From contig CP066684.1 in the NCBI GenBank assembly GCA_016432325.1, positions 672,001 through 736,000 of the forward strand: a DNA stretch of 64,000 bases, written 5' to 3'. The notes below the pieces were generated by a model. It made no database searches. It had not been told where the DNA came from and saw only the letters and a list, made by a program, of their open reading frames with translations. The stretch comes from Candidatus Aenigmatarchaeota archaeon. Lineage in GTDB: Archaea; Aenigmatarchaeota; Aenigmatarchaeia; PWEA01; JACQIF01. How positions within the stretch are numbered: the stretch's first letter is position 1; each line of letters starts with the position of its first letter. This document shows positions 6,748-32,887 of this stretch, piece by piece. A program made the translations under genes and the position numbers.

Positions 6748-9700
6748 GCCTGTCCACCCTGGGGAACGTTGAATGTCACGCCTGTCTTCTTCTTGGGCAG
6801 CTTCTGCTTTATCTTTTCGACGAGCGCCTTGAGTCTCTGCTTCGCGCGCTCTAAGGGCGAGCCTCCGTCAGGCGGACCGTACGTGAATCCTCCGACAGTC
6901 GTGGCCTGTTTCGCCGGCGGCAGGAACATATAGACAACGAGTCCTCCGACGGCCACGGCAACGACTATTCCCGCTATGAGCAACAGCGAAGTTCCTGAGG
7001 CAGGCACGGCCTCGGCCAGCTGCAAGTGAAGTTTGCTAAGCAATTCATCGGCTTCGGCGAGCAACGCGTTCGCCTCTATGTAATCGCCGCTTGCTATAGC
7101 CTCGCCGGCGAGTCTCATCTTCTCCTTGAGCTCGGCGAGCGTGGCGTTCGCTTCGGTGAGGTTGTAACCGCGCTTCGAGAGGTCGTTGATTCTGGTCTCA
7201 ACGGTCGTTATGTTCTGCAGCTTCGCCGCGTAGGTCGCCTCTATCTTCGCCTTGGTCTCGTTGGACGGCTGCACGGTGAGCGTCGCGGTCACGGAACCTT
7301 CGTTGTCTGCGTTCGACGCCTTGTATGTTATGGCGTGTTCTCCTATCGCGGCGTCTGCCGGTATCGCGTATGAAACCGCAAACGTCACGGTCTCGTCGGC
7401 CAGAATGTCAACACTCTCCGGATCCACGCCGAACCATGACGCGTCGACGCCTTCAACGGCCAACTCGACTCCGCTCTGCGTCGTGTCTCCGGTGTTCTTC
7501 ACGCCGATGTCCACGCTCTTGTTGCCGCCTTGAACGATTTCAACGTCTGCCGGATAGGACGCTATGTCAAGAACGTCCTCTTCTGCCGTCTCCTCTGCCG
7601 CGGCTTCGTCTGCCGTCGTGTCGCTTGACGAGTCGCTGCTACTGCTGCTGGAGCTCGACGAGGAGCTGTCCGCGTCTGTTATCGTCAGGCTTATCGACAG
7701 GTCGCCGTAATCCGCGGCCTCGCCTGTCGCGCTGATGGTGAGCGTGGCGGACGTCGAGGATGTCACGTTGTTCGGATCCAGCTTGAAGGCCAGCCTGCAT
7801 ACTTCCGTGCCGTCGGGGTCTATGCTGTTGGCCGCGGTGACGGACTCCAGGCGGAAGCCGTTGCCCACCTTGGTGCCGTCTGTGCACGCCGTGCTGTTCT
7901 CGGCGTCCGGAGTTATCACGAGGTTTGAGTTCGTGCTGATATTGATGAACCCGCCGGGAGCAAAGGTTCCTAAGTTGCGGACCGAGAAGTTGAAGTAGGC
8001 GACGCTGTTGTCCGCGACCGTCACGGACGTGGAGTCTATGGCGACGAAGTAGAGGCCTGAATTGTTCACCCGGATAGTCGAGTTGGTACCGTTGCCTTTC
8101 AGAGTCGTGCCGAGACGGACGTCTGACGCGCCTACGAACACGCTATAGTAGCCTCCTGGTCTCGCCGAGTCCGGAGGCAGCGTGGCGTTGAACTCGTAGC
8201 GCCCGTTCTGGAGCAGGGGCACGTCATCGGTGGACGTTATGCTCTCGTTGGTGACGTTGAGCGTACCTGAGCTGGGGTAGCGGGTCGACGTGTTGCCCTC
8301 GAAGATGTAGACCGTGAAGTTGCCCGTGGCGTTTATCATGTCTGTTATCTCGGTGCCGTTTTTGTAGAAGACCTCGGCCGCCACCGTTATGTTGTTTGTC
8401 TGCGTGACGTTCTCGATTTCGTTGTTGCCCACGTGCAGCGCGTCCCTCACGCGCACGTCTATCTCGCTGGTGAGGTTGACGCGCACCGTCAGGTTGAATG
8501 TCTGGTAGGGGCGCGCTCCGGTGTCGTTTAGCGTTACCCATCCGACGTAGAGGCCCTCGGTGTTGAGGGTTTCGAGTGTGTCGGCCGTTATTGTAAGGTT
8601 GAGGTTGCTGCCCGTGTTTGCGGACAACGTACCTGTCGGGTCTGTTGTAGAGAAGTCAAGGAACTTCGACGAGTTGCTGGTCAGGTTCAGGCCGGTCGAA
8701 TTGGCGCGGGCGTCGAACGTCAGGTCTGCGTTGCCAGTGTTGTTCACGGATATGTTCAGCAGTATGGAGCCTAGGCCTGTCCTGTTGACTCCGATGTTGT
8801 CCGTGATTGTAATCGTGGAGCGGTTGTACGTGCTGTTCACCATCAGCTCCGCAGTCACGACCGTGGAGTTGAGCGGTATGTCGTGTATGGCGCCGGACAA
8901 CGACGTGTAGCGCAGCCTTCCCCCGACCTCGCCGCTCAGAGTGTCGTTCTGCGCCGTCAGGTTTATCTGGTGGGTTCCGTAGTTATTGGTCAGGCCTGTC
9001 TGGTTGAACGTGCGCGTCGTGTAGTTTGACATTATCCACGCCGAGGCGTTAATGAAAAGTTTTGCCGTGACGTTGTAGAGAACGGGGCCTGCCGTATTGT
9101 TCGCGACCTCCACTGTCCACGTGCCGTCGTCGTCAAAGCCTATCGTTGCGCCGGACGGCGTAAAGGTAACGAACTCCTCTGAAACGGAGCCGGTCTTGTT
9201 CGACAGGTGGGATTTGTTGGAAGACGTTCCGACGAGCGTGCCGTCGGGTTTGATGAGTCTCAGCGTGTAGTTGACGCCTCCCGTCCAGTTGAGGCGCGCG
9301 TCAATCTTGGTTACGAAATCGGGGACGCGCAGCGTGAAGTTCTGCGCCCCTGTGGGCGCGTTGCTGGAGAAGCGCTGCATGAGGTACAGCTCGCTGGCCT
9401 CCGTGACGTTTGTCTGGTTGATGGAGCCCGTGTTGGTGAGCACGATGTTTACGGTATGCCTTTCGGACGGCGCAAGACCGGTGAAGTTTATCCTGTTGAG
9501 CGTGGCGGACGTGGAAGCGTTGGTCGCATTGAGCGTGCCGTATATGAGAAATCCTCCGGGTCCCTGATAGTCAATCTGGCTGGTCGTGTTGTTGCCATAG
9601 ACGCGCACGTTGAACATCCTGGCGGCCTGAGGGTACATGAACGTCAGTGTCTCTGAAAGGTTGCGGCCTGAGGAGCCGGTGAGAAACACGTTGTTCTCAT

Positions 9701-10430
9701 CGAAAAGGAAAAGGTCGACGTCGTTGGTGTGGCCGGCCCATGTAATATTGACGGTCACGGACGTGGCGTTGACGATGGCGCTCGTGTTGAAGTAGTACCT
9801 GTGGTCCTCGCTCTCGTTGATGTCGAGCTTGCCGCGGAACTGGCCCACGCCGTTCGTCGCTCCTGACGTGCTGAGGCTGTTGTTGGCGTCGATAGGAATG
9901 TCCATAATCACCGTTATGTTCGCGTAGTGCGTCGCGTTGGTGGAGTTCGTGACGTTGAGCAGGCCGTAGTACCGCCCCGGAGGACATGCCCTTGCGGCCG
10001 AGAAGAGGACCGTCAGGTTCTCGTTGGCTGTCGTGAGGGGGATCGTTATGTTCGTGCGCACGTCTGTGCCGTTCTTGACGAAGAGGGGCGTCTGGGCGCC
10101 TGTGCTGCCGCAGCTGGCGGAGCCGTAGCCCGACGTGCCCGTGGCCCAGTCGTTCTCTGTGCCCGGCTGCGTGTAGTTTCTCAGAACCGTGTGCGTGTTG
10201 TTTATCACGGCCGCTATAAGCGCTGGTATGGCCGTATCGTTGCGCCATATCGTGATGTTGGCTTCGTATTGCCTGCCTGTGTCGGCCGTTGTCCAGTTGA
10301 GGCGTATCGTGTCCTGCGTGACGTTGAACTGAGCCGGAACCGGGAGGCTGTACACAACGGCTTCGGCGACAGAGGCCGCAAGCAGGCCAGCAAGTATTAC
10401 AGCGGCGACCAAAGCCAGTTTACGGTCCAT
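6744..10430 (-). CDS. Large secreted, membrane-anchored surface glycoprotein (S-layer/adhesin-like, Ig-like domains)
   Basis: Signal peptide, very dense N-x-S/T sequons, poly-Ser linker, CARDB/NPCBM-like VKNTGD segment, coiled coil, C-terminal TM helix. Confidence 0.8.
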   Translation of the reverse strand: MDRKLALVAAVILAGLLAASVAEAVVYSLPVPAQFNVTQDTIRLNWTTADTGRQYEANITIWRNDTAIPALIAAVINNTHTVLRNYTQPGTENDWATGTSGYGSASCGSTGAQTPLFVKNGTDVRTNITIPLTTANENLTVLFSAARACPPGRYYGLLNVTNSTNATHYANITVIMDIPIDANNSLSTSGATNGVGQFRGKLDINESEDHRYYFNTSAIVNATSVTVNITWAGHTNDVDLFLFDENNVFLTGSSGRNLSETLTFMYPQAARMFNVRVYGNNTTSQIDYQGPGGFLIYGTLNATNASTSATLNRINFTGLAPSERHTVNIVLTNTGSINQTNVTEASELYLMQRFSSNAPTGAQNFTLRVPDFVTKIDARLNWTGGVNYTLRLIKPDGTLVGTSSNKSHLSNKTGSVSEEFVTFTPSGATIGFDDDGTWTVEVANNTAGPVLYNVTAKLFINASAWIMSNYTTRTFNQTGLTNNYGTHQINLTAQNDTLSGEVGGRLRYTSLSGAIHDIPLNSTVVTAELMVNSTYNRSTITITDNIGVNRTGLGSILLNISVNNTGNADLTFDARANSTGLNLTSNSSKFLDFSTTDPTGTLSANTGSNLNLTITADTLETLNTEGLYVGWVTLNDTGARPYQTFNLTVRVNLTSEIDVRVRDALHVGNNEIENVTQTNNITVAAEVFYKNGTEITDMINATGNFTVYIFEGNTSTRYPSSGTLNVTNESITSTDDVPLLQNGRYEFNATLPPDSARPGGYYSVFVGASDVRLGTTLKGNGTNSTIRVNNSGLYFVAIDSTSVTVADNSVAYFNFSVRNLGTFAPGGFINISTNSNLVITPDAENSTACTDGTKVGNGFRLESVTAANSIDPDGTEVCRLAFKLDPNNVTSSTSATLTISATGEAADYGDLSISLTITDADSSSSSSSSSSSDSSSDTTADEAAAEETAEEDVLDIASYPADVEIVQGGNKSVDIGVKNTGDTTQSGVELAVEGVDASWFGVDPESVDILADETVTFAVSYAIPADAAIGEHAITYKASNADNEGSVTATLTVQPSNETKAKIEATYAAKLQNITTVETRINDLSKRGYNLTEANATLAELKEKMRLAGEAIASGDYIEANALLAEADELLSKLHLQLAEAVPASGTSLLLIAGIVVAVAVGGLVVYMFLPPAKQATTVGGFTYGPPDGGSPLERAKQRLKALVEKIKQKLPKKKTGVTFNVPQGGQA

Positions 10431-11285: not shown

Positions 11286-11648
11286 ATGCAAACCCTCGAT
11301 GGCGACGCCCTGAAACAGGACGACGCTATGAGGCTCAGCGGCGACGTGGAACTCAGGTTCGTCCATTACAACGAGCTGCAAGGCCTGCGGGATTTCAACG
11401 GGCGGCTGAGGGAGCTTTCGCTGCGCATGTATTTCCCCGTCTTCAAGAAGTCGGGCGACGGCCGCACATTCTTCGACCCGGCGCTGGTCAAGCCCGATGG
11501 CCTGACAGGGGAAGATTTCAGCTACTACGAAAGCGGGCGCCTGCGCGCGACGTGGCATGAGTGCGACGACTCCGAGGGAATGGGCGGTTGGGTCTCGTTC
11601 TACCTGAGCGCCGAAGAGGTCAGGACGCTTGCAAAGGAAGCGGCCTAG
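11286..11648 (+). CDS. Hypothetical protein
   Basis: 120-aa ORF, typical codon usage, upstream TTTATTTAA. Confidence 0.55.
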   Translation: MQTLDGDALKQDDAMRLSGDVELRFVHYNELQGLRDFNGRLRELSLRMYFPVFKKSGDGRTFFDPALVKPDGLTGEDFSYYESGRLRATWHECDDSEGMGGWVSFYLSAEEVRTLAKEAA

Positions 11649-13462
11649 ACGAAGACCTTTACCTCTTTACTCGTCGCCAACGCGTTCACCAGCTTCTTGC
11701 CGAGGTCCGAGTCCTTGGACAGGCGTATCTGCGACGTCTTCCCAACGGTCGCCGTGAACAGGTACTCGTCGGCGATGTACGTATTCGCGTTCTTGCCGCG
11801 CATCTTGTCCTCGAAGAAGAGCACGATGTACGCGCCCGTTTCATCGACCTCGAACGGCACCTGCTTGCCCAGCGTTTCGACCTTGGGCTGCACGTCTATG
11901 GAAACGCCGAGCTTGCGTTCTATCTCCGAGATGTTCTTGCCGGCTTTCCCGATGAGGCGTGGAATCATCTCGTTCTTCACCTTCACAACTACGCGCGTGT
12001 CGCTGATGAACTCCACCTTCATTCCGGGATCGAATTCGCGCAGCGCGTCGCGTATGCGTTCCGCGGCCAGCTTCTTCAGGGGGTCGTCGCGCTCTTCTGT
12101 CACGGGGATAACGACGTTCTCCTCGCCGAAGGTGTAGATTTCGTACTCAAGGTTCGCGGTCTCGAAGTCGCGTATCTCCACGACAGGACGGGCCAGGTCC
12201 TGCTCCGTCATTCCGGTGGGAACGCGGACCTTCATGTCTATCGAATAGACCTTGGCGACGGTCCCGTCCTTGACGTACACGATGGTGTCGAGGATGTGCG
12301 GTATCATGCCGAGCTCCGTCCGTCCGATGAAGCGCTGTATGGCGTCCACGGGCTTCGTCGCGTGCACGACTCCGACCATGCCGACTCCCGCGAGGCGCAT
12401 GTCCGCAAATACGCGGAAGTCCGCCGTCTTGCGAATCTCGTCGTATATCGTGTAGTCCGGTCGCACCAACAGCAGGATGTCCGCGGTGTTCGCCATGTTG
12501 CCGTTCAGGGGACCGTACTGCGTCACCTCCGCAGGGACGCGCAGGTCCCGCGGAGACTCCATGGTCTTGATTATCTTGTCCTGTTTCAGGTAGAACTCCG
12601 CGAGGCTTTGGACAAACGTGGACTTGCCGGAGCCGGGCGGCCCCGATATGAGGATTCCTTCCGCGTGTTCGCGCAGGCGCGCTATCAGTTTTTCAGTCGG
12701 CTTGTAGTCCTCAAGCGTCAGCTTCACGAGCGGCCGTACGACCGTAATCTCGTAGTCGCGGGAGAACGGCGGTTTCGTGATCGCGATGCGGTACTCTCCT
12801 ATCTGTATCACTTCGGCGCCGGTCATCGTTATCTCGAACTGGGCGTCGTCGCGGTGGCGCGCCACGTAGACGATGTTCTCGGCCATCTGCTCGAGTTCCG
12901 CGCGCGTGAGCGCGTCGCGGCGCAGTTTCACAAGCGTCACGTGACCGGGTTTGCCGTGCTTGGCCTGCGGAACGGCCCCTTCCTTCAGGTGCAGGGACAT
13001 CGTCTCCTTATCCAGGAGATCCTCGAAAAGAAGCTTGTACTTCTCCTCTGTCGGCGCCACGTAAAAGACGTTGAGGCCATCGGCCTGCGCGACTTCGGAC
13101 TGCACGAGATCCGCGGTATAAAGCGTCGCGTTGAACTCCTTGGCCGCGTCGCGTATGAGCGCGTCTATGCGGCCCTTCTTCGCTAGCTTTATCTCCTCGG
13201 CCGTCGGGCGGCGTCCGGTCGTCGTTATCTTCAGGCCTTTCGCGTCCGCCAGTTCGCGGAGCTTCTTTATCTCCCTGAGGCCGTCGAAACCTATTTCCAA
13301 GCCGCGGTTGGCCTGCGACTGAAGTTCGTCCAGAACCATCTCCGGAATCACGATTTCAACGTCGCGGAGGTCTCCTGCGTCTATCATCTCGGACAGCTTG
13401 CCGTCTATTATTATGCTCGTGTCCGGGACGATACGTTTGACTGATTCGTTGTTCTCTTTCAT
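11645..13462 (-). CDS. PIN-domain ATPase with KH domain (PINA, Holliday junction branch migration)
   Basis: N-terminal PIN (VPDTSIIIDG), Walker A GPPGSGKST, YDEIR, C-terminal KH LIGKAGKNI. Confidence 0.9.
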   Translation of the reverse strand: MKENNESVKRIVPDTSIIIDGKLSEMIDAGDLRDVEIVIPEMVLDELQSQANRGLEIGFDGLREIKKLRELADAKGLKITTTGRRPTAEEIKLAKKGRIDALIRDAAKEFNATLYTADLVQSEVAQADGLNVFYVAPTEEKYKLLFEDLLDKETMSLHLKEGAVPQAKHGKPGHVTLVKLRRDALTRAELEQMAENIVYVARHRDDAQFEITMTGAEVIQIGEYRIAITKPPFSRDYEITVVRPLVKLTLEDYKPTEKLIARLREHAEGILISGPPGSGKSTFVQSLAEFYLKQDKIIKTMESPRDLRVPAEVTQYGPLNGNMANTADILLLVRPDYTIYDEIRKTADFRVFADMRLAGVGMVGVVHATKPVDAIQRFIGRTELGMIPHILDTIVYVKDGTVAKVYSIDMKVRVPTGMTEQDLARPVVEIRDFETANLEYEIYTFGEENVVIPVTEERDDPLKKLAAERIRDALREFDPGMKVEFISDTRVVVKVKNEMIPRLIGKAGKNISEIERKLGVSIDVQPKVETLGKQVPFEVDETGAYIVLFFEDKMRGKNANTYIADEYLFTATVGKTSQIRLSKDSDLGKKLVNALATSKEVKVFV

Positions 13463-13525
13463 TTGTTTTCACCTTTTTGTTTTTCTTCGCAGCCGCCCGC
13501 AGGCGGATGTAAGAGTATGATGCGA

Positions 13526-14782
13526 CTACGCGAGGTCCCGTGCTGTCATGACGTTCATCGTTCTCGGTATGCGCACGCGTTTCTCGAGCTTCATTCCTAT
13601 GACGTTCCTGACGTTCTGGGCCTTGGCGAAGTTGATTAGTTTCTGGTCTACTGTCCCGTCCAGAACGACCGTGTGCGTGCCGTCGACCTCGCGCATGGCG
13701 TTGAAGACCTCCTTGGTCGGAATCTTACCGAGCACGTCCAGCCTCGCGTCCAAAAGATACGCCGCCCGAGTGCCTGTGAGGCCGTCGAGCACGTCCTTGA
13801 GACGGGCGACGTTCTCTTCTGTCATGCCGGCGGGTCTGCGCTTCGGCCGCTGGGCCTCTTCTTCAGCAGACTCCTCCTTAGACTCGGGTTCGCGTTCGGC
13901 GCGCAACGGCGTCTTCTCTTCCGTATAGTTGCCGCGCGTGCGATCCTCGAACGGTTTTTCAAGGTCGCGGCGCGCCGTTTCTATGGTTACGCGTTCGCGC
14001 AGCGACTTGTAAATCTCCTTCTTCGTCAGCTCTTCGACCTCCTTGCCGTATGGGGCGCGCGCCACGAATTCCAGTTCGACGCCCTTTTGGACCATCTCCC
14101 TGAGTATCAGGTCGCCTCCCCGGTCTCCGTCCAAAAACGCCGTCACGGACTTTCTTTTGGAAAGTTCGACGACCGCGTCAGGAACGGACGTGCCTTCCAC
14201 GGCTATCGTGTTCTTTATTCCGTTTCGCAGCAGTTTGAGCACGTCTGCGCGCCCCTCGCAGACCACGATTTCTTCAGAGACTTCGAGGTCTGGGCCGCAT
14301 GGAAGGCCTTTGTAAGACATCACTTCCGACGTGCGAACGGCGCCGACTACTTCTTCCATCATCTCGGTGCGCTCGGGCATCTTGTCTTCGAGCTGCGAAA
14401 GCAAGTCCTTGGCGCGCTCGACGAGATACTTCCGCTTGTTGGAACGGACGTCTTCAACTTTGTCTACGGTTATCTTGGTCTCGCACGGGCCGATGCGTTC
14501 AATCGTTTCGAGCGTGGCCGCTATCAGGGCAGTTTCGCTCGCGTCGAGCGAGGACGGGATTTCAATCATTCCCTCGCTCTTGCCGCCCTCGCTCTTGAGG
14601 GAGACCTCTATCCTGCCGATTCGCCCTGTGCGCTGCAGTTCGCGCAGATCCATGTCCGCGCCGAGGAGTCCCTCGGTCTGTCCGAAGACGGCTCCTATCA
14701 CGTCGGGCTTGTCTATGACGCCGCTTGCTGTGAAGCGGGCTACTATCGTATACTTTGATGTTGCTTGTGCCAGTTTGGCCAT
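13526..14782 (-). CDS. dnaG: Archaeal DnaG (primase-like, exosome-associated)
   Basis: DKPDVIGAVFGQTEGLLG..DLRELQRTGRIGRI, EGRADV, FLDGDRGG; GGAGGT SD. Confidence 0.95.
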   Translation of the reverse strand: MAKLAQATSKYTIVARFTASGVIDKPDVIGAVFGQTEGLLGADMDLRELQRTGRIGRIEVSLKSEGGKSEGMIEIPSSLDASETALIAATLETIERIGPCETKITVDKVEDVRSNKRKYLVERAKDLLSQLEDKMPERTEMMEEVVGAVRTSEVMSYKGLPCGPDLEVSEEIVVCEGRADVLKLLRNGIKNTIAVEGTSVPDAVVELSKRKSVTAFLDGDRGGDLILREMVQKGVELEFVARAPYGKEVEELTKKEIYKSLRERVTIETARRDLEKPFEDRTRGNYTEEKTPLRAEREPESKEESAEEEAQRPKRRPAGMTEENVARLKDVLDGLTGTRAAYLLDARLDVLGKIPTKEVFNAMREVDGTHTVVLDGTVDQKLINFAKAQNVRNVIGMKLEKRVRIPRTMNVMTARDLA

Positions 14783-15150
14783 TGCTATTACCTCCATTGT
14801 ACCGGCCAGAACGAGAGTCGCCTATTATACACTCTATCTTTGTGTTCCCACACTGACGGTGAACATGAGACTCGTTCTCCGGTGATTTTTGATGTTTTGT
14901 TATCGCGTTTACCAACGATGACGTCTGACTTTTGTAATGGTATTTGGCCCGCCGTTAACTACGCGGCCTCACCGTTGGCCTCAGAGGCCATCTCGTCCGG
15001 TGTGATCCGACAGGCGCAAACGTTCTTTCGGTATTGGGGTATCATTCTCTCATACAGCACGTCGCGCATAGCGCAAACAGCAGGCTTCAAGAATCGATTC
15101 TCAATACCTGCTCTGATAGGGGAGGGGTAGTTATTTAAGCGTATCTGTAG

Positions 15151-15165
15151 TATAACAGTGTTATA
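15151..15165. promoter_or_regulatory. Palindromic operator, copy 2
   Basis: TATAACAGTGTTATA about 10 bp from a minus-strand TTAAATA box facing dnaG. Confidence 0.55.
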
Positions 15166-15313
15166 TTCAGGGGATATGTGTGCCTAAAAGGGTCGTATAT
15201 GGTCTATTCGCACACAATGCGCATGTTTTGAGCATCTGGCGACGAAAGAACGACGTATACGTCTTTTTGCACGCCGACCGCTGACTATCTTGGGAAGCAA
15301 ACGAAAACGCGGA

Positions 15314-15835
15314 CTATCCTTTCACCATTTTAGGCAACAAATCAAAGAAGCTCTGGACCTCGTTCTTCATCATCAGCAGCTTGCGCGAAGCCTCTGCCTT
15401 GTAGCCCTCGCGGACATCCTTGTATATCGCCTTCTCGTAGAACGTTCGAAACGCCGCCCAGACTATCGATTTTTGGATGGGCGTGTCCTGCGGGTATTCG
15501 GTCTCGACGGTGGCGCCCATCGTGATATTCACGTCTCCGACGAACTTGATGTCCCCTTTGTGCACGGGCTTGAGTTTCATGTCGATGTTTATCTTATACG
15601 TTATCCTGGTGAACTTGTCCTTGTAACGGTAGGCCTCGATGATCGATTTTATGTTCTCGCTTTCGCCGAGCTTCACGTGCTCGTAGAGCTTCTCGTCTAT
15701 GTTCGCCTCGCTGAAGACCACGCGCTCGGCCAGAATGTTCTTTATTTCGTGGTAGAGCTGCTGCGGGTTCGGCACGTTCTTTACCTTGAGATTCGGCCGG
15801 ACGTCAACGTCGTCCTCGACCTTCAGTTTTGCGAT
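15314..15835 (-). CDS. Hypothetical protein, probable ATC start
   Basis: Frame open 60 nt upstream of the track GTG, up to an ATC directly after GGAGGCGGTCTGA. Confidence 0.65.
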   Translation of the reverse strand: MAKLKVEDDVDVRPNLKVKNVPNPQQLYHEIKNILAERVVFSEANIDEKLYEHVKLGESENIKSIIEAYRYKDKFTRITYKINIDMKLKPVHKGDIKFVGDVNITMGATVETEYPQDTPIQKSIVWAAFRTFYEKAIYKDVREGYKAEASRKLLMMKNEVQSFFDLLPKMVKG

Positions 15836-16378
15836 TCAGACCGCCTCCCTGCATTCGTCGCACAGCAGCTCGCCGCTGACGAGCCGTAGGTCCGTCGTGT
15901 AGTTGCCGCAGGCCTCGCAGAGGTCGTCGGCCTCTGCCTTCTGAACGTCCTTCTTGAGCTCCTCGAGCTCTGCGTACAAGTAATCCATCAGTTCCGGAGC
16001 GACCCGCAGGACGTCGCCGTCGGTGAGTATCCCGGCAAGCTTGCCGCTCTCGACGACCATCAGCCGTTTGATGTTCTTCTCGGCCATGAGTTTCATCGCG
16101 TCCACGAGCTCCGCGTCCGCTCCTATCGTAACAGGATTCTTCGTCATCACTTCCTTGACGCGCGCCTTCTTGGCGTCCTTGTTCGACGCCACGATGCGCT
16201 TGACGATGTCCTCGCTTGTAATGAGGCCTACGAGCTTCTGGCCGACGCAAACAGGAACGGAACCTATGTTTTTAGATAGGATTGTTTTGGCGGCTTCGAC
16301 GACGGTGTCCTCGGGACCTATCCTCGACGGCTTCGCCGACATCGCGTCCGCGACCGTTATTTTGCGCATGTTGCTCAT
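15836..16378 (-). CDS. CBS-domain pair protein with C-terminal zinc ribbon
   Basis: Two CBS repeats (VGLITSEDIV, AGILTDGDVL) and CEACG..CDEC. Confidence 0.9.
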   Translation of the reverse strand: MSNMRKITVADAMSAKPSRIGPEDTVVEAAKTILSKNIGSVPVCVGQKLVGLITSEDIVKRIVASNKDAKKARVKEVMTKNPVTIGADAELVDAMKLMAEKNIKRLMVVESGKLAGILTDGDVLRVAPELMDYLYAELEELKKDVQKAEADDLCEACGNYTTDLRLVSGELLCDECREAV

Positions 16379-16436
16379 TGCTCCTTTCGTTTATTTAATG
16401 CCTTGTAGGTATTATATGGATAAAAAGGTGAGTGGC

Positions 16437-16823
16437 GTGACCAACTACAGGAAAGGAGTTCGCTTCGAGTACCGCGTCCGCGACATCTTCCGCAGGCACG
16501 GCTATGCGGCCGAGCGCAAGGCCGCGTCCTCGCCCTACGACATCATGGTCATGAAAGGCGGCCGTGTCGTGTTTGTTGTCGACGCGAAGAAAACATCCGT
16601 CTCCGGCAAGAAGCATATTCATATCAGCAGGGACGACGTCTCGAAGATAATCAGCAACGCGTCCGTTCTCAACGCGCAGCCGCTGGTCGTCTACGGCTTC
16701 AACATGGGCGACGCGTTTGTCGCGTTCCCCGAAGAGCTCCTGAAGAACGACGGAAAGACCGTGCGTCTGGAGGACGGGATGCTTCTCGAGAAGTTTCTGC
16801 AGAGCTACATTCAGGCAGCCTGA
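16437..16823 (+). CDS. hjc: Archaeal Holliday junction resolvase
   Basis: YRKGVRFEYRVRDIF..GY..R.AAS.PYDIM..VDAK; GTG start after GGTGA. Confidence 0.75.
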   Translation: MTNYRKGVRFEYRVRDIFRRHGYAAERKAASSPYDIMVMKGGRVVFVVDAKKTSVSGKKHIHISRDDVSKIISNASVLNAQPLVVYGFNMGDAFVAFPEELLKNDGKTVRLEDGMLLEKFLQSYIQAA

Positions 16824-16850
16824 AGACCGCGGGGTCTCCGGCCCTGCCTT

Positions 16851-17006
16851 CTAAAAATCCCTGGATTTCCACATGGATGCCGCCAGAAACGCGCAGCCTG
16901 CAAGAGCGGCCAAGACAGCGACAGGCCAGAGCACCGGCCATTTTAAAGCTGCCAGCACCGCCGCGAGCGTAACCGACGTTCCTACGAAGAGCCATCGTTT
17001 GTTCAT
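16851..17006 (-). CDS. Small two-helix membrane protein
   Basis: 51-aa hydrophobic ORF MNKRWLFVG... Confidence 0.45.
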   Translation of the reverse strand: MNKRWLFVGTSVTLAAVLAALKWPVLWPVAVLAALAGCAFLAASMWKSRDF

Positions 17007-17033
17007 ATTGACCACGGTATGATTGTCCGCAGA

Positions 17034-17090
17034 CGGACTTTTCATGAAGGTTTTTGCGCGTTGGCTTACGCGCTTGGCGCAAAAAGCTTC
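17034..17090 (-). repeat. Dispersed hairpin element (REP/MITE-like), free-standing copy
   Basis: 45/57 ungapped identity to 26530-26586, with compensatory stem changes. Confidence 0.75.
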
Positions 17091-17820
17091 AGGGGTACGC
17101 GCGCTTCAGCGTCTTCATCAGCTCCTCGGCGTTTTCTATGCGCGTCAGCGCAACGGGTATGCTTTCCACTTCGCCTATGCGCAGCGCGATTTCGTCCAGC
17201 TCCTTCGGACCCTGGAAGACCACCAGGTTCGGCTTCAGGTTTGTGACCTTCAGGGCGACCATGGGGCTGCGGCCGGACGAGACGTTGGTGAATATCAGGG
17301 CGCGGTCGGTCGTCAGCCCGTAGATGTTGACCAGTTCGGTGGGAGAAAGCTCTATTATGGCCTTTATCGCGTCCACTATGGTATAACCGTAGATGTTCCT
17401 GTCGCCGAGATCCTCGCGCACCATTATCCTGCACTTTATCTCCTTGCAGAAGTCCTTGACGTTTACCGGAGTCGTAAACTCCTTGATGTCAAGCACGGCC
17501 GAAGAGAGGATATTCTTTGACGGGAATGAATAGAACTCGCGCAGAACCCGTCCGCCGCGCCTGTTGTCTATGTTGACAAGGGCCTCCACAAACCGTTGTA
17601 TTATCTTTATACCGGGGCTGGTCCTGCGGCCGGACTCGTAGTCCGATATGACAGACGGCATGATGCGCAACTCGTCGGCAAGCTCGCGCTGGGATATCTT
17701 GAATATGTTGCGCCACTTCCTTACCGTGAGGCCGGGCTTGGTCGAGAGAACTATTTCGCCGCATATCTGTTTGATAAGGTTATCTTCGGCTATCTTATTT
17801 ACGTCCAATGCAGCACCCAA
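17089..17820 (-). CDS. XRE-family HTH regulator (COG1709-like)
   Basis: ICGEIVLS..RKWR..F.ISQ.ELA..SVISDYESGRR.SPG, GRSPMVALKV. Confidence 0.85.
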   Translation of the reverse strand: MGAALDVNKIAEDNLIKQICGEIVLSTKPGLTVRKWRNIFKISQRELADELRIMPSVISDYESGRRTSPGIKIIQRFVEALVNIDNRRGGRVLREFYSFPSKNILSSAVLDIKEFTTPVNVKDFCKEIKCRIMVREDLGDRNIYGYTIVDAIKAIIELSPTELVNIYGLTTDRALIFTNVSSGRSPMVALKVTNLKPNLVVFQGPKELDEIALRIGEVESIPVALTRIENAEELMKTLKRAYP

Positions 17821-17856: not shown

Positions 17857-18205
17857 CCCTGCCTGACCCTTTCGTTTCGTCTGGAACGTCGGTATTCGTT
17901 TTTCGTGAAAACGAAACGCATGGATATAGATATAACACTGTTATATCAAGATATAGATAAGAGAGGGATGTTGCAGTGGAAACGATGGGGTGGGAGGGTC
18001 TTACGAGACGTCGAAAGAGATACGACGCTAGCCCCAAACATTTCAGATCAAGAACGCACAGACGTCCAAACCGCCGGTTATATTTACTCACATAGCACAC
18101 ATTCTATAAACGTTCAAACCATCGCTTCGTGTGGAGAAAAGCTTATATACACCCTCGTTTCGTATAGAGAATTCGCTCGCTTACCATGGTTTCGTATGGA
18201 GCGCG
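17857..18205. other. Probable chromosomal replication origin (oriC) with ORB elements
   Basis: ORB-like GTTGCAGTGGAAACGATGGGGTGGG (+, 17970) and GTTCCAGACGAAACGAAAGGG (-, ending 17887); weaker minus copies near 18151-18202; AT-rich segments; directly upstream of cdc6. Confidence 0.8.
17931..17945. promoter_or_regulatory. Palindromic operator, copy 3, inside origin
   Basis: GATATAACACTGTTATATC extended dyad in the AT-rich segment between two ORBs. Confidence 0.6.
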
Positions 18206-18223: not shown

Positions 18224-19414
18224 ATGCAGATGTCTCTGGAAAACGTAATACAAGGATACCTTTCTAGACGAAGCCTGTTCAAGGACAGAAAACCGTTCAA
18301 CGGCTACACGCCGGACGAAATTCTGCACCGCGACCGTGAGATAGAGACGGCGGCGTCGATACTCTCTCCGGCTCTGAAAAACCAGAGACCCTCAAATCTG
18401 TTCGTTTACGGCAAGCCAGGAACAGGGAAGACGACTGTGATAAACCGCGTCGCAGGCGAGATACAACGCCTCTCGGAGAACCACAACACGACGGTGAAGA
18501 TGGCGTACCTGAACTGCAAGCTCAAAAACGCCGCCGACACGGAGTATCGTGTAATCGCTTCTCTCTGCAAGGCGTTTGGTCGCGACGTTCCGGCCACCGG
18601 ACTACCGACCGTCAAGATATACGACGCCTTCTTCGACGCACTTGAGGAGGCAGGCGGCACGACCATAATCGTGCTGGACGAGGTGGATTTCCTCGTCGCC
18701 AAGATAGGAGACGGCTTCCTCTACAACCTGACGCGCATCAACGACGACCTGAAGAAGGCGCGCGTTTCGATAATCGGCATATCCAACAACCTGTCCTTTA
18801 CCGGGGCCCTGGATCCCCGCGTGCGTTCGTCGCTTTCGGAGGAAGAGCTGCTCTTCCCCCCGTACAACGCGCTGCAGCTGCGCGACATATTGAAAACGCG
18901 GGCGTCGATGGCGTTCAACGAGGACGCCCTTGAAGAAGGGGTCATTGAGAAGTGCGCCGCCCTCGCGGCTCAGGAACACGGGGATGCGCGGCGCGCGCTC
19001 GACCTCCTGCGCGTCGCAGGCGAAATCGCCGAGCGCGAAGGGGCAGAACGCGTGCGGATATCACATGTTGACGTGGCGCAAGGCAAGCTGGACGAGGACC
19101 GCGTGCTGGATGCCATACGCGCGCAGCCGCGCCAGTCGCAGACCGTTCTCTGGACGGTGATGCAGAACTCTGACGCGTCAACGGGCAACGTCTACGCTCT
19201 CTACGAAACCGCCTGCAAGAACAACGGCCTCAAGCCGCTGACGCAGAGGCGCGTCTCGGACCTCATATCAGAGCTTGACGTGCTGGGCGTCGTGGAGACG
19301 CGCGTGGTCAGCAAGGGCCGTTACGGCCGCACACGCATAATACAGGCAAGGATACCGCCGCATCTTCAGGCTCATGTGAGGGACGTGCTTGTGAAAGAGT
19401 TCTTCTTCGCATAG
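18224..19414 (+). CDS. cdc6: Orc1/Cdc6 replication initiator
   Basis: YGKPGTGKT, LDEVD, LDPRVRSSL, FPPYNA.QL, GDARRALDLLR, C-terminal wH with SKGRYGRTR. Confidence 0.95.
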   Translation: MQMSLENVIQGYLSRRSLFKDRKPFNGYTPDEILHRDREIETAASILSPALKNQRPSNLFVYGKPGTGKTTVINRVAGEIQRLSENHNTTVKMAYLNCKLKNAADTEYRVIASLCKAFGRDVPATGLPTVKIYDAFFDALEEAGGTTIIVLDEVDFLVAKIGDGFLYNLTRINDDLKKARVSIIGISNNLSFTGALDPRVRSSLSEEELLFPPYNALQLRDILKTRASMAFNEDALEEGVIEKCAALAAQEHGDARRALDLLRVAGEIAEREGAERVRISHVDVAQGKLDEDRVLDAIRAQPRQSQTVLWTVMQNSDASTGNVYALYETACKNNGLKPLTQRRVSDLISELDVLGVVETRVVSKGRYGRTRIIQARIPPHLQAHVRDVLVKEFFFA

Positions 19415-19433
19415 AATACGACAGCGTGGGAAA

Positions 19434-20408
19434 ATGGACGTCGTTGACGAGATGCTGCGAAAGGGGATGCTGCTGTCGCCGGAAGCCGCCGCAGTCCTGC
19501 GCAGGAAGCCGGAGCTCGTTTCAACACTGAGCGTTTCCGGCACGGTCGTCACGCTCGGAGACGTCGAACGTCCGTCTGTCGTGTGGTCCGCGCCGCAGAA
19601 AAATGCGTCCTCTGTCAGCGAGCTTGCCGAATTCTACGCCGCGCGCTTCGCGTTCTACCGCGGTCTCCTCGAGGCCAAGGCCGACCGCGCGTTGCTCGTT
19701 TCAATGTCGCAGGCGGCCGGCCACGGTTCGCGCGCGAGCATAATCGGAATCGTCCGCGAGGTCGGGCAGGGCTTTGCCGTGCTGGAAGACGGGACGAAAA
19801 CTTTGCGCGTTCGGACACAAGAGAAGCTGCTCGAGGACGAGTGTGTGCTCGTGACAGGGACGATGGACCGCGACGCGCTTGTCGCGGAGACGATACTGTT
19901 CCCGGACGTGCCCATCGGGCACGCGGCCAAGACGTCGGCCAAGGAGGCGCGGCTTGTCGTCTGTGTTGACCCAGTCGCCGCCAACGCCACAGTCCTCATA
20001 ACGAACGCGTCCGCGGACAGTTCGCGCATGAACTTCGCCGCAGGCAACTCCGTGGTGTGGCCAGACGGCGCTGACGGAACGCGCCCGGTCTCCCCGTGCC
20101 TCCTGAACATCAACGGTCTCTTCGTACTGTTCCACAGGATATCCGCGGCCGATCTCCAGCGCATCGCAGACGCGCCTGTCGACAAGGCGGCCATACGCCT
20201 CCTGCGTTCGAGGCATATCGACCCGCGGAACACGCTTCCGGGCGATCCTCTGCTTCTGCGAGACGTCCCGGACATAGTCGTTCTGGACACAGGCGTGGCG
20301 TTCTCGGCAAACTACAAAGGCGTTACTGTCGTGTCGCCGTCGCGCGAACGCGCGTACGAGATAGACCTGAGAACGCGCGAAGTCAAGGAATTCAAAGCGC
20401 AGGCCTGA
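19434..20408 (+). CDS. Degenerate DNA polymerase D small subunit (DP1)/B-subunit-like protein, exonuclease motifs lost
   Basis: N-terminal LRKGMLLSPEA helix, OB fold (IIGIVREV..LEDGT..VLVTG..ILFPDVP), LLRSRHIDP..DPLLLRDVPDI..NYKGVTVV; directly after cdc6. Confidence 0.8.
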   Translation: MDVVDEMLRKGMLLSPEAAAVLRRKPELVSTLSVSGTVVTLGDVERPSVVWSAPQKNASSVSELAEFYAARFAFYRGLLEAKADRALLVSMSQAAGHGSRASIIGIVREVGQGFAVLEDGTKTLRVRTQEKLLEDECVLVTGTMDRDALVAETILFPDVPIGHAAKTSAKEARLVVCVDPVAANATVLITNASADSSRMNFAAGNSVVWPDGADGTRPVSPCLLNINGLFVLFHRISAADLQRIADAPVDKAAIRLLRSRHIDPRNTLPGDPLLLRDVPDIVVLDTGVAFSANYKGVTVVSPSRERAYEIDLRTREVKEFKAQA

Positions 20409-20910
20409 GATGGGACCACGGGATGTGAGTCTCCGCGAACAGGTCCGCGCGCAGGTTTTCCACATGGACAGAACCGACGTCGACGGATTCGAATCGCGTT
20501 GCATACGCCCCGCACCAGTCAGCGACCCTTTTCGGCGTCAGCGTCTCGCTCTTGTGGAAAAACAGTCTGCTGTGGAATCCGTTGGCCCCCCACTTCTGGG
20601 CTCTGGCCGACACGTGGCCGCCTGTAACGTCGGCTATGAAATCGGCGGTAGACGCGGCGTCCTCACTACGACCGCGTTCCGTGTAGACGTCGACTCTTGG
20701 AGAGTGCTTGCCGTTGAGCCGTATGAAATGGCGTGCGTCGTAAGACGCGCCGCCCGGACCGCGAAGATTGACGTCAACGCGCCTGCACGCATCTTCCGGA
20801 AGCATCCTCAGTTCGTCCAGCGTCGGCGCGCCTATCACGTAGTCCGTTAAAATTATCGGAGCTTCCGGCACCTCGTCTCCAGTCGGTTTAAGAACGTCAA
20901 ACAGTCCCAT
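20392..20910 (-). CDS. Hypothetical protein
   Basis: 172-aa ORF with SD-like GAAGGGA and upstream TTAAATA. Confidence 0.55.
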   Translation of the reverse strand: MGLFDVLKPTGDEVPEAPIILTDYVIGAPTLDELRMLPEDACRRVDVNLRGPGGASYDARHFIRLNGKHSPRVDVYTERGRSEDAASTADFIADVTGGHVSARAQKWGANGFHSRLFFHKSETLTPKRVADWCGAYATRFESVDVGSVHVENLRADLFAETHIPWSHLRPAL

Positions 20911-21037
20911 AAAATCCCTTCAATAAACGCACTAACCTATTTAAGCGGCACGAAACGCGCCGCACAAACCTCTATAATCCGCGCCACAAATCTATTTTAT
21001 ACTACGAGTGCAACTAAAACGCCTTCGGGGGTTAGGC

Positions 21038-23728
21038 ATGCGGCTGCAGGTATTGGACGCAGACTACACAATGCTGGACAACAAGCCTCTGATGCGCATA
21101 TTCTGCAAGCGGCCCGACGGGAAGAGCGTGTGCGTCTTCTACCGGAACTTCCTGCCTTATCTCTACGCGCTTCCGCGGGGCAGCGACGAGGACGTGACGG
21201 CGCTTCTCAGGAAAAGGTTCGGCGGCGAGCTCCTTAACGTCGAGCGCGTCGAGCGTTTCCTGCCTATCGGCTACAACGACACGCCGGCGAAGCTTCTTAA
21301 AATAACGCTCCGCACGCCCTCGAAGGTGCCGGAAGCGAAGGAGGCGCTCGCGTCCATCGCAGAGCTGTACGAAGCGGACGTCCTGTTTCGCTACAGATTC
21401 TTTTCCGATTTCGGCATCGGCGGCATGGGATGGATAGACGTCGAAGGTTCCAACGCGAGCACGTCTACGGTTTACTGCCCTGTGATAGAGGCGACGTCAA
21501 TAACGCCCGTCCAATCGGAGGAAAACGTGCCTCTGCGCTACATGTCTCTCGACATCGAATGCGTTCCTCTTGAGATGGCCGGAATAGCCGGGGCCGAGAA
21601 AGACCCGATAATAATGATGTCCCTGATATTCGAGCCCGGGCACAAGGACAGGCGTAGCGTGGTCCTCGCCTCAAGACTCGGCATCACGAACGCCGAATGC
21701 TATCCGGACGAGAAGCAGATGCTCCAGGCGTTCATCGACGTCGTGCGAGCGTACGACCCCGACGTGCTCGTGGGTTACAATATCCAGAACTTCGACCTCC
21801 CGTACATCCTCAAACGCCTGGAGATTCACGGCTTGGAACGCAAGCTAGGCCGCGCGGACAAGACGACGTTTACGCGCACCATGGTCGGCAAGCAGGCCAC
21901 GGACGTCATTGGCCGTGTGGTCGCGGACCCGTACGTGATAATACGAAAACCCGACATAAGCACCATGCCGGGGTTCGCCAGGTTCAAGCGTTATGATCTC
22001 AACACGGTCGCGCACGACCTCCTCGGCGAGGAGAAGATAAAGATAGACCACAAGGAGATGCGTGACGCGTGGCTGGCCCGCCAGAAGATGGAGACGTACG
22101 TCGAGTACTGCCGCAAGGACGCGGCGCTTGCGCTTAACATACTGCTGAAATACCAGATGATGGACAAGTACGTCGCCATCGCGCGCCTCTCCGGGATCAC
22201 GCTGCAGGACTCGATCAACGGCGGCCAGAGCACGCGCATAGAAAATCTCCTGCTCAACGAGTTCAACAGGCGCGGCTTCGTGATGCCCCTCAAGCCCGGG
22301 GACGAGGAAGACGCAGAACGCGAAGCGGAACGAGGGCAGACGGAGTACAAAGGAGGTCTCGTGCTCGAGCCGGAGAAAGGACTGCACACGGACGGCTGTA
22401 TTGCCGTATTGGACTTCAAGAGTCTGTATCCTTCGATAATCATGACCTACAACGTCTGTCCCACAACGCTCGTCAGGAGCGACACGAACGCGTCGCTCAA
22501 CGTCTCTCCAGCAGGCGCCAAGTTCGTGACGGCGGACGTCCGCGAAGGAATACTGCCCGCGATACTCGGCAGGCTGATAGACGAGCGCGCGGCGGTGAAG
22601 AAGCAGATGAAGTCCGCCAGCGGAACGGCCAAGGCCGTGCTGGACGCCAAGCAGTTCGCCCTGAAGATGGCCACGAATTCGTTCTACGGCTACACAGGAT
22701 ACCTGCGCGCGCGGATATACGTCCTGGACGTGGCGAACGCGATAACGGCATACGGGCGCACGCTGATAGAACAGACCAGGGACACGATAGAAGGCCACGG
22801 CTACAAGGTCGTCTACGGCGACACGGACTCAGTGATGATAAAAATCCCCACGCGAAACCTGGACGAGGCCTACACCATAGGAAACGACCTCTCGCGCGAG
22901 ATAACGGAATCCCTGCCCGGAAGGCTCGAACTGGACTTCGATAAAATCTTCCGCTCGTTCCTCATTCTTACCAAGAAGCGCTACGCCGGATGGTCCTTCG
23001 AGAAGACGGGCGACAAATGGAGCGACAAGATAGAGATGAAGGGAATCGAGACCGTGCGCCGCGACTGGTGCGATCTCGTGTCAGAGACAATGGAAAACGT
23101 GATAGAGACCATCCTGAAGGAAGGCGACATCGGCAAGGCGATGGGAACCGTCAAGGAGCAGGTCGAGCGGCTCAAGCAGGGAAACGTGGACATCTACAAG
23201 CTGGCGATAACGAAAGGCCTCACGAAGAGCACGGAGCGCTACGACGGGATGCTGCCGCACGTGGAGCTGGCGAAGCGGATGAAGAAGCGCGGCGGCGCGC
23301 CCGCGGCCGGCGACAGGATACAGTTCGTAATCGTTTCCGGGAACGCCCTGATAAGCCAGCGCGCCGAAGACCCCGAGTACATTATACAGAACAAGCTAAG
23401 GATAGACAGCGACTACTATATCGGCTCGCAGCTGCTGCCGCCTCTGGAGCGCATCTTTGCCGTGATGGGAATCGAACGCAACGAGCTGACCGGCGGAGGC
23501 CGCCAGATAAGCCTCTTCGAAGCCATGAACGGCGGCAAGCCCCAGCGGAAGTTCTCTGTTGTGAGCGAGATGAACCCCGACAAGGCGGTCGTCACCAACG
23601 TCGAGGGCTTTTCGTGCCGCTCCTGCAAAACAACGTTCCGCCGCGTGCCGATTCTCGGCAAGTGCGACTGCGGCGGAGAAATCTACGCGTACGGCGGCGG
23701 CATGATGGGCAAGACAGTGGCGGTTTGA
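21038..23728 (+). CDS. polB: Family B DNA polymerase with PIP-like box and C-terminal DP2-like zinc finger
   Basis: Exo motifs DIE, GYNIQNFD, YCRKD; Pol motifs DFKSLYPSII, KMATNSFYGY, YGDTDS; RQISLFEAM; FSCRSCKTTFRRVPILGKCDCGG. Confidence 0.97.
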   Translation: MRLQVLDADYTMLDNKPLMRIFCKRPDGKSVCVFYRNFLPYLYALPRGSDEDVTALLRKRFGGELLNVERVERFLPIGYNDTPAKLLKITLRTPSKVPEAKEALASIAELYEADVLFRYRFFSDFGIGGMGWIDVEGSNASTSTVYCPVIEATSITPVQSEENVPLRYMSLDIECVPLEMAGIAGAEKDPIIMMSLIFEPGHKDRRSVVLASRLGITNAECYPDEKQMLQAFIDVVRAYDPDVLVGYNIQNFDLPYILKRLEIHGLERKLGRADKTTFTRTMVGKQATDVIGRVVADPYVIIRKPDISTMPGFARFKRYDLNTVAHDLLGEEKIKIDHKEMRDAWLARQKMETYVEYCRKDAALALNILLKYQMMDKYVAIARLSGITLQDSINGGQSTRIENLLLNEFNRRGFVMPLKPGDEEDAEREAERGQTEYKGGLVLEPEKGLHTDGCIAVLDFKSLYPSIIMTYNVCPTTLVRSDTNASLNVSPAGAKFVTADVREGILPAILGRLIDERAAVKKQMKSASGTAKAVLDAKQFALKMATNSFYGYTGYLRARIYVLDVANAITAYGRTLIEQTRDTIEGHGYKVVYGDTDSVMIKIPTRNLDEAYTIGNDLSREITESLPGRLELDFDKIFRSFLILTKKRYAGWSFEKTGDKWSDKIEMKGIETVRRDWCDLVSETMENVIETILKEGDIGKAMGTVKEQVERLKQGNVDIYKLAITKGLTKSTERYDGMLPHVELAKRMKKRGGAPAAGDRIQFVIVSGNALISQRAEDPEYIIQNKLRIDSDYYIGSQLLPPLERIFAVMGIERNELTGGGRQISLFEAMNGGKPQRKFSVVSEMNPDKAVVTNVEGFSCRSCKTTFRRVPILGKCDCGGEIYAYGGGMMGKTVAV

Positions 23729-32389: not shown

Positions 32390-32829
32390 TTCACTATGCG
32401 TATCCTTGGATATTTTGAGGTTCCGGGCGGTTGCGCGTATGCAGGCGGCGCAGGCCCCTGTGTCTTCTTGCTCGCTTCGAGGACCTGTTCGTTGAGTTCG
32501 ATGAGCCTGTCAAACTTCTCCACGATGCTCTCGGGCATCGATTCCTCTCCAGTCGCCTTCTTCAGCAGTTCGACCAGCTGTTTCCAGCTCTCCACGACCT
32601 CGTCTATCTTTGGAGGTATGGCCTGCAAATCCTGCCGCAGCGAGTTGTTCGCCTTTACGACCTCGTCCACGAGCTTCTGGTTGGCCTTTATGAGGTCCAT
32701 TACGTCGCGGATGAATTCGCGGTCTGCGTTCTCGTCCTTCTTCTCGACCTTCCTCAGGCGCTCTTCCATTCTTCTAAGAGGGGTGAGTGGAATGACCTCG
32801 TACTCTTCTTCGCCATAGTCGTCAGGCAT
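32386..32829 (-). CDS. Coiled-coil hypothetical protein heading the pilus cluster
   Basis: YEVIPLTPLRRMEERL, NQKLVDE; upstream TTTATAAA. Confidence 0.7.
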   Translation of the reverse strand: MPDDYGEEEYEVIPLTPLRRMEERLRKVEKKDENADREFIRDVMDLIKANQKLVDEVVKANNSLRQDLQAIPPKIDEVVESWKQLVELLKKATGEESMPESIVEKFDRLIELNEQVLEASKKTQGPAPPAYAQPPGTSKYPRIRIVK

Positions 32830-32887
32830 GTAATCGAGAAAGAGTTGGGAACCCGAATTTATAAAGACGGAGTGCGTATCATACGCG

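Follow-up and report, generated by a model that had tools for sequence, protein, structure and literature searches.

The 64,000-nucleotide stretch of DNA analyzed here (the window) comes from an Aenigmatarchaeota genome of 875 kb that is assembled as a single contig, with a 100-N gap close to the contig's end, and is 90% complete by marker genes. The locus of interest contains, in order, a cluster of ORB-like repeats with an AT-rich stretch, an orc1/cdc6 replication initiator gene (18224-19414, forward strand, 396 aa), a gene for a 324-aa homologue of DP1, the PolD small subunit (19434-20408, forward strand; hereafter DP1*), a 172-aa ORF on the reverse strand (20392-20910), and a gene for a family-B DNA polymerase (PolB) that is very probably of the B6-aenigma1 type, 896 aa counted from its ATG (21038-23728, forward strand). 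The earlier note had placed cdc6 upstream of the other two genes, and both Pfam (Cdc6_lid, E 1.5e-27; Cdc6_C, E 1e-21) and TIGR02928 (408 bits, cut-off 181) agree with this; DP1* starts 19 nt past the cdc6 stop codon. The distance between DP1* and polB, given before as about 630 bp, is 629 nt by our measurement, but because the reverse-strand ORF occupies this gap, DP1* and polB probably do not form a single operon in this genome. The ORF has no Pfam match and no homologue, and its model gave no usable Atlas match, though it has a pTM of 0.82. As a candidate third subunit it was ruled out, given that it is on the reverse strand, has no relatives and is absent from 20 related loci; it is probably an unrelated insertion outside the system. 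When loci from different genomes are compared, cdc6 adjoins DP1* in 17/20 and DP1* lies immediately 5' of polB in 15/20.

Five ORB-like repeats are found between 17865 and 18203, at 17865-17888 (reverse), 17969-17992 (forward), 18115-18138, 18148-18171 and 18180-18203 (all reverse). The first two form an inverted pair that flanks the AT-rich stretch (about 17893-17963), which is 70% AT across 70 bp and falls at the 99.9th percentile. Exact TNCANNNGAAAC cores occur three times within 320 bp, compared with 0.018 expected per 400 bp, and this is the genome's densest cluster; only the first ORB pattern was counted, two looser patterns having been shaped after the repeats were seen. Matching used a general ORB core consensus. 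Similar repeat clusters lie upstream of cdc6 in many relatives. Inverted ORBs around an AT-rich element beside orc1/cdc6 are the arrangement of an archaeal oriC, and 17865-18203 is a probable oriC on these sequence features. The oriC had previously been assumed, and the repeats and AT-rich stretch support it, whereas genome-wide skew does not: GC skew makes no turn at this locus (690 kb) and has its cumulative minimum at about 48 kb, and GC/AT skew across the genome failed to place the origin.

PolB matches the Pfam models DNA_pol_B (E 9e-121) and exo1 (E 7e-31). Intact motifs are present for both the exonuclease (D172/E174, N248/D253, Y357/D361) and the polymerase (D459, K543/N547, D595/D597); the catalytic residues of both activities are invariant across 30 orthologues, as expected of the proofreading enzyme that had been described from the sequence. 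Full-length orthologues are found throughout the phylum at ~45-53% identity, and the PolB of a same-genus genome is 73% identical. Because orthology runs phylum-wide, it is very likely that this PolB belongs to the published B6 clade (Delta-like); its profile scores are 558 bits for Pol delta, 559 for Thermococcales PolB and 390 for Pol alpha. The PIP-like box RQISLFEAM (23501-23527, forward strand) is present as originally quoted, with an RQ that is near-invariant among orthologues and an aromatic pair that is unconserved. Gins51C (C1:160423-160554), PCNA and MCM are all encoded in the genome, and the box may be a PCNA-binding site.

[quoted passage not shown] The four Cys, R869, P871 and G874 are invariant in 30 orthologues. 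A single-sequence search of the whole PDB with the finger gave DP2 as the best match (E 0.014), and a profile of the finger, whose top PDB matches are again DP2, reaches DP2 Zn-III at E 5e-8 to 2e-7; eukaryotic CTDs gave no match up to E 1. Against eight DP2s from the same phylum, the finger gives E 1e-11 to 4e-6. A word-based homologue search found one relative for the PolB tail. The earlier identification of a DP2-type zinc finger at this C-terminus therefore holds, and by homology we take the finger to be derived from DP2 Zn-III.

The relationship of DP1* to DP1 is harder to see. Single-sequence searches of Pfam and PDB found no match, the word-based search again returned one relative, and DP1* is 20-37% identical to most of its own family; homology was detected only via the NCBIfam DP1 model (E 2e-14, 53 bits, cut-off 445), the family profile (PolD DP1 at E 2e-31, Pol epsilon B subunit at E 6.5e-5) and the fold. 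The predicted structure (pLDDT 92) has DP1N-like N-terminal helices, an OB fold and a remnant phosphoesterase domain, and Foldseek ranks PolD DP1 first, followed by eukaryotic B subunits (Pol epsilon B subunit, E 4e-14; Pol delta p50, E 6e-14). In the alignment, the metal-binding His/Asn/Asp ligands are gone, and the five metal motifs of PolD DP1 cannot be traced in full: about 70 residues across motifs II-III are deleted, with motif II inside the alignment gap. Motifs I and IV are 56 residues apart in DP1*, compared with 127 in an active DP1 of the same phylum and a median of 48 in the DP1* family. We conclude that 19434-20408 is a DP1 homologue and, judging from the alignment, nuclease-dead. 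The earlier note's DP1 homologue without catalytic motifs is upheld in this, but not as a purely point-inactivated protein, since part of the domain has been deleted.

When PolB and DP1* were modeled as a complex, the pair scored 0.66, while the best control scored 0.00; the mark used for such scores is reached by 58/80 solved pairs and by 2/110 mismatched pairs. The runs share at least 90% of contacts, and partner pLDDT is at least 66. The predicted interface centers on RRVPILG, which corresponds to the docking loop of PolD (PMC6355029), and the finger is predicted to contact DP1* at residues 56-72 and 118-123. This prediction may be a recall of solved PolD or B-subunit structures. A 2025 study (PMC12680538), in the passages that concern this phylum, tested the Aenigmatarchaeota PolB-DP1 interaction by AlphaFold3 and yeast two-hybrid; in the two-hybrid assay, DP1 bound PolB-DP2CTD and not PolBs lacking DP2CTD. 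A heterodimer of the PolB CTD and DP1* is thus predicted to form, and the association proposed earlier finds agreement both in our model and in the two-hybrid result for the same pair from another member of the phylum.

The DP2 model PF03833 has no match in the source genome, and tblastn with seven DP2s from the phylum returned nothing below E 0.02, the top match being the PolB finger. The earlier note had asked after DP2 and a second, active DP1, and neither was found in this single-contig, 90% complete genome. The second match of the DP1* profile (C1:149866-150249, 128 aa) is not DP1 but a short OB-fold protein beside PCNA, and a weak match of the DP1 model (C1:46818-48215) is likewise not DP1 and resembles a tRNA-synthetase OB domain. 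DP2 is thus very probably absent from the genome, a single contig that is 90% complete.

Across the phylum, DP2 is present in 12/251 genomes and was not found in the other 239, among them each of the remaining 15 genomes of this order. In one family, f7, it is present in 11/11 genomes. DP1 was checked in three f7 genomes and has its full set of motifs in each, and the only PolB matches in this family are weak (E 1e-73 or worse). By comparison, all but ~10 of the 240 non-f7 genomes have a strong match to the source PolB. In one genome, G092, the two systems occur together but on different contigs; because the G092 DP1 and DP2 are on a 3-kb contig and are only 36-43% identical to those of f7, they are probable contamination. 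The mutual exclusion of PolB and DP2 amounts to one lineage split and so counts as a single event. The replacement of PolD by PolB that had been raised as a possibility fits this nearly exclusive distribution.

Taken as a whole, we think it highly probable that a two-subunit Aenigmatarchaeota polymerase, PolB plus DP1*, replaced PolD. A proofreading PolB bears a zinc finger that, as homology shows, descended from DP2 Zn-III, and DP1, as the alignment shows, has shed its metal ligands and ~70 phosphoesterase residues; its N-terminal helices and OB fold remain, as does the groove beside that fold. The RRxP loop is predicted to dock on DP1*, giving a PolB-DP1* heterodimer that would resemble eukaryotic catalytic/B-subunit pairs. 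PolB would perform synthesis and proofreading and would bind PCNA through its PIP-like box. In Thermococcus, DP1N links the polymerase to the helicase via Gins51C, and DP1* could be a non-catalytic adaptor that ties PolB to the helicase in the same way. In a cell without DP2, PolB-DP1* would be the main replicase, its genes retained with cdc6 at the origin. For the heterodimer of PolB and a dead DP1 at oriC that the earlier note put forward, the finger, the dead DP1, the lack of DP2 and the complex model all speak in favor; its role as replicase we infer.

The source genome and a sister genome also encode a second PolB (C1:39891-42341 in the source), whose motifs are intact and which has a PIP-like tail but no finger, and many genomes of the phylum have two PolB matches. 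The heterodimer might on this account share replication with the second enzyme, or serve one strand or repair, and not be the sole replicase. We regard this as unlikely, as in numerous genomes that are at least 90% complete (e.g., G004, G009, G016, G020) the single PolB match is the strong one, and only the polymerase at 21038-23728 has the DP1-docking finger and the cdc6 neighborhood. It is a good deal less probable still that the finger and DP1* are non-binding relics, with DP1* having a role of its own, such as that of an OB-fold protein that binds ssDNA or GINS. Such a view could draw on the missing helical bundle, which in PolD contributes to the contact between DP1 and DP2, on the high divergence of DP1*, and on the ORF that splits DP1* from polB in this genome. 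However, the RRxP and the four Cys are invariant or near-invariant, the DP1*/polB linkage is kept across families, the complex model favors binding over the controls, and the reported two-hybrid result is positive within the phylum (PMC12680538, in the passages cited above). Finally, the incomplete marker set and the 100-N gap leave some sequence in which a normal DP2, the true partner of DP1*, could lie, and G092 does carry both systems; we give this almost no credence, since the source genome is a single contig, DP2 was not found in 239 of the 251 phylum genomes or in the rest of the order, the G092 genes look like contamination, and a PolD built with DP1* would lack a site for proofreading. 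The replacement of PolD by PolB-DP1* is the reading that we retain.

A PolB paired with a dead DP1, accompanied by loss of DP2, is already known for Aenigmatarchaeota. Kazlauskas et al. 2020 (PMC7544198), in their passages on B6-aenigma1, describe this PolB with an inactive DP1 and the loss of DP2, and propose that PolB replaced DP2, so the pairing, which the earlier note had held to be new, is not. The locus in this study shares with B6-aenigma1 the host phylum, a PolB with its own exonuclease and intact motifs, a single DP2 Zn-III-like C-terminal motif, an inactive DP1 and the absence of DP2, and there is no difference of kind, the orphan ORF between DP1* and polB being peculiar to the source genome. 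The relevant passages of PMC7544198 and PMC12680538 are silent on the ~70-residue deletion in DP1*, the cdc6-DP1*-polB cluster at the ORBs, and a PolD-keeping family without the source-type PolB. The deletion, the conserved origin location and the PolD-retaining family are useful extras, and the genome itself contributes a further, divergent member whose two genes make a compact construct for biochemical or structural work. We are evenly divided on a bolder idea, that this pair is the smallest known catalytic/B-subunit design, a bare finger on a middle-deleted DP1 that acts only as a PolB-GINS tether. If true, f7, which keeps full PolD and has no source-type PolB, would offer, within one phylum, a before/after view of the PolD-to-PolB swap from which eukaryotic polymerases have been proposed to arise.

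With PolD (Pyrococcus abyssi 6HMS/6T8H, Thermococcus kodakarensis 6KNB) the pair has in common the DP1 fold, the Zn-III finger with RRxP and the predicted docking site. It differs in that the core is of family B and not the two-barrel DP2 catalytic subunit, which is not found in the source genome, DP1 is dead and partly deleted, and the CTD bundle of DP2 is missing. The Baldrarchaeia (Asgard) PolB3-DP2CTD + DP1, called 'Pol delta-like' and formerly 'B6-aenigma2', is similar in its PolB-DP2 CTD fusion, its DP1 binding and its loss of DP2, and passages of PMC12680538 report that it is phylogenetically related to the Aenigmatarchaeota PolB. According to the same passages, the Baldrarchaeia CTD is longer and nearer to DP2 and eukaryotic CTDs, while the source CTD is short, degenerate and one-fingered and lacks the two metal motifs and long helical CTD of that group. 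Eukaryotic Pol delta, alpha, epsilon and zeta likewise have a family-B core whose C-terminal Cys4 module docks on an inactivated DP1 homologue. Their CTDs, however, have two metal motifs (CysA and CysB) and a helical bundle, their B subunits are full-size phosphoesterase folds of ~410-470 ordered residues compared with 324 in DP1*, and their third and fourth subunits are not evident in the source genome. By analogy, the pair would work like a eukaryotic Pol alpha/delta/epsilon holoenzyme, but it is not a member of that group. It may be viewed as an archaeal case of a step proposed for the eukaryotic replicases, in which PolB takes the place of the DP2 core but the docking finger persists, as does an inactivated DP1.

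The window covers positions 672001-736000 of a 90.1% complete genome (a single contig of 874,869 bases) and carries on its plus strand a cdc6 gene (18224-19414; TIGR02928, 408 bits), a 324-aa homologue of the PolD small subunit DP1 that begins 19 nt later (19434-20408; here DP1*) and, after a gap of 629 nt, a PolB of 896 aa (21038-23728). Sequence and fold together show an active PolB with a DP2-derived finger and a dead DP1, with no DP2. The exonuclease and polymerase motifs of the PolB, which is 73% identical in the sole other genome of the same family, are intact and invariant among 30 orthologues, as are the four cysteines, R869, P871 and G874 of its one Cys4 finger, located C-terminal to a PIP-like RQISLFEAM. 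The last 87 residues have DP2 as their best PDB matches (E 0.014), and a 30-sequence profile of the C-terminus matched DP2 at E 5e-8 to 2e-7 and no eukaryotic CTD in the PDB. The profile also matched eight DP2s from within the phylum, at E 1e-11 to 4e-6. These results bear out the earlier note, which had read the protein as a proofreading PolB running into a DP2-type finger. In DP2, helices flank the finger and about 50 further residues follow, whereas this PolB stops 18 residues past the last cysteine, so that PolB acquired the finger alone.

As a single sequence, DP1* matched nothing in Pfam or the PDB. An exhaustive search found 291 relatives, and a profile from 146 of them matched both PolD DP1 (E 2e-31) and the B subunit of Pol epsilon (E 6.5e-5). 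The NCBIfam DP1 model was matched by 144 of the 146 profile members, and DP1* itself reached 53 bits, where the cut-off is 445. A fold search with its AlphaFold2 model (pLDDT 92) ranked PolD DP1 first (E 1e-17), followed by the Pol epsilon, delta, zeta and alpha B subunits. In an alignment with the phylum's active DP1s, DP1* lacks the His of motif I and has gaps in place of motifs II (GDxxD) and III (GNHD), and the His of motifs IV and V are substituted; motifs I and IV are 56 residues apart, versus 127 in active DP1 and a median of 48 in the DP1* family. The N-terminal helices, OB fold and C-terminal strands are retained. The protein is a dead, shortened DP1, and the loss of catalytic motifs claimed in the earlier note holds.

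The predicted complex of DP1* with the last 80 PolB residues scored 0.66 (best control 0.00), reaching a mark that is also reached by 58/80 solved pairs and 2/110 mismatched pairs; runs share at least 90% of contacts, with partner pLDDT of at least 66. The best predicted contacts put PolB RRVPILG against DP1* residues 61-72 and 118-123, as in PolD, where the Zn-III loop docks at the OB-PDE groove (PMC6355029). Because the PolD structure is solved, the score may reflect recall of PolD and indicates likeness only. The proposed PolB-DP1 pairing is supported by this prediction and by a positive two-hybrid result in the phylum (PMC12680538).

The gene order and the gap (about 630 bp) were described correctly by the earlier note, which did not mention an orphan ORF of 172 aa on the opposite strand within the gap (20392-20910, minus). 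This ORF makes it probable that DP1* and polB are transcribed separately in this genome. It has no Pfam match, no homologue among 5.8 billion proteins and no usable Atlas match, and turned up in none of 20 related loci; its structure in the Atlas is predicted with confidence (pTM 0.82), and a fold search by query gave nothing above TM 0.5. Gaps of 600-730 nt between DP1* and polB also occur in three other genomes of the same taxonomic order (G156, locus L093; G187; G227), and a search of the L093 gap turned up no homologue of the orphan ORF.

Five ORB-like repeats lie upstream of cdc6, two of them facing each other over a stretch of 70% AT, a value at the genome's 99.9th percentile. Exact copies of the ORB core TNCANNNGAAAC occur three times in 320 bp, where 0.018 would be expected in 400 bp; nowhere else in the genome are they clustered so densely. 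The skew does not turn at the cdc6 locus, so an origin upstream of cdc6 is only likely; the oriC that the earlier note assumed is supported by the repeats and the AT stretch and not by the skew. The genes at 11645-17820, which are conserved beside the origin in relatives, are a PIN/KH ATPase (PINA-like), dnaG, a CBS-like protein, Hjc resolvase, an HTH regulator and a 153-aa unknown ORF (15314-15775); in many relatives a PAP2 phosphatase gene follows polB. Elsewhere in the window are a 1228-aa ORF (6744-10430, minus) with almost no Pfam match apart from a weak NEW3 match, which may be a surface protein, a 761-aa ORF (32431-34716, plus) with almost no Pfam match, and a 367-aa DHH/DHHA1 family protein (43260-44363, minus) that could be RecJ/Cdc45-like or an oligoribonuclease.

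Neither DP2 nor an active DP1 was found in this genome, the search proposed in the earlier note; tblastn with seven phylum DP2s gave nothing below E 0.02, the best match being the PolB finger itself. Among 251 phylum genomes, DP2 was found in 12, namely every one of the 11 in family f7 (G006, G017, G028, G061, G099, G138, G139, G161, G205, G209, G212; loci L077, L078, L080, L111-L118) and G092. Family f7 does not fit the statement that DP2 is lacking in the phylum. Its genomes lack the finger-bearing PolB, matching the window PolB only weakly (no better than E 1e-73, on a par with the second PolB of this genome), a complete DP1, all five motifs included, is present in each of the three checked, and no cdc6 was found near their DP1 or DP2 genes. 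In G006 the open frame of DP2 (L118:3076-7890) runs to 1605 aa and exceeds its relatives by about 500 residues, perhaps through an intein. All but about 10 of the 240 non-f7 genomes match the window PolB strongly, mostly at E ~1e-250, and the DP1* profile matches 245/251. G092 has DP1*-polB on one contig (L122, C11) and intact DP1-DP2, sharing just 36-43% identity with their f7 counterparts, on a 3-kb contig (L037, C64:1-3058) that is probably contamination; if real, it would be an intermediate state. The distribution of DP2 versus finger-PolB is one lineage split, counted as one event. Across 20 loci, each in a different genome and picked by PolB position and contig size, cdc6 adjoins DP1* in 17, and polB is directly downstream of DP1* in 15 and within ~3 kb in the other 5.

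The genome also encodes Gins51C, PCNA and MCM, a second PolB (C1:39891-42341), near the cumulative skew minimum at ~48 kb, and a second, shorter cdc6-like gene (C1:140442-140627, L090; open frame 345 aa), near which no ORB cluster was found. We consider it very probable that PolB and DP1* form a heterodimer, as predicted here and tested in another phylum member, that would serve as the main replicase: PolB would supply synthesis and proofreading and bind PCNA, and DP1* would be the adaptor tying it to the helicase via Gins51C, like DP1N in T. kodakarensis, which links polymerase to helicase by that route (PMC9023282). The main rival is that the work is shared between this pair and the second PolB, whose motifs are intact and which has a PIP-like tail and lacks the finger.

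The observation is confirmed and its interpretation supported, and the system was already known. Kazlauskas et al. 2020 (PMC7544198) describes B6-aenigma1, a PolB whose one motif most resembles the DP2 CTD finger, reports most Aenigmarchaeota without DP2 and an inactive DP1 group co-occurring with B6-aenigma1, and proposes that this PolB replaced DP2, paralleling or preceding the eukaryotic design. What this analysis adds is modest: that DP1* has an internal deletion, that the cdc6-DP1*-polB cluster at ORB repeats is conserved and that family f7 keeps PolD. The 2025 Nature Ecology and Evolution study (PMC12680538) reports from AlphaFold3 and yeast two-hybrid that Aenigmatarchaeota DP1 binds PolB-DP2CTD and not other PolBs, and assigns the fuller, eukaryote-like form to Baldrarchaeia.
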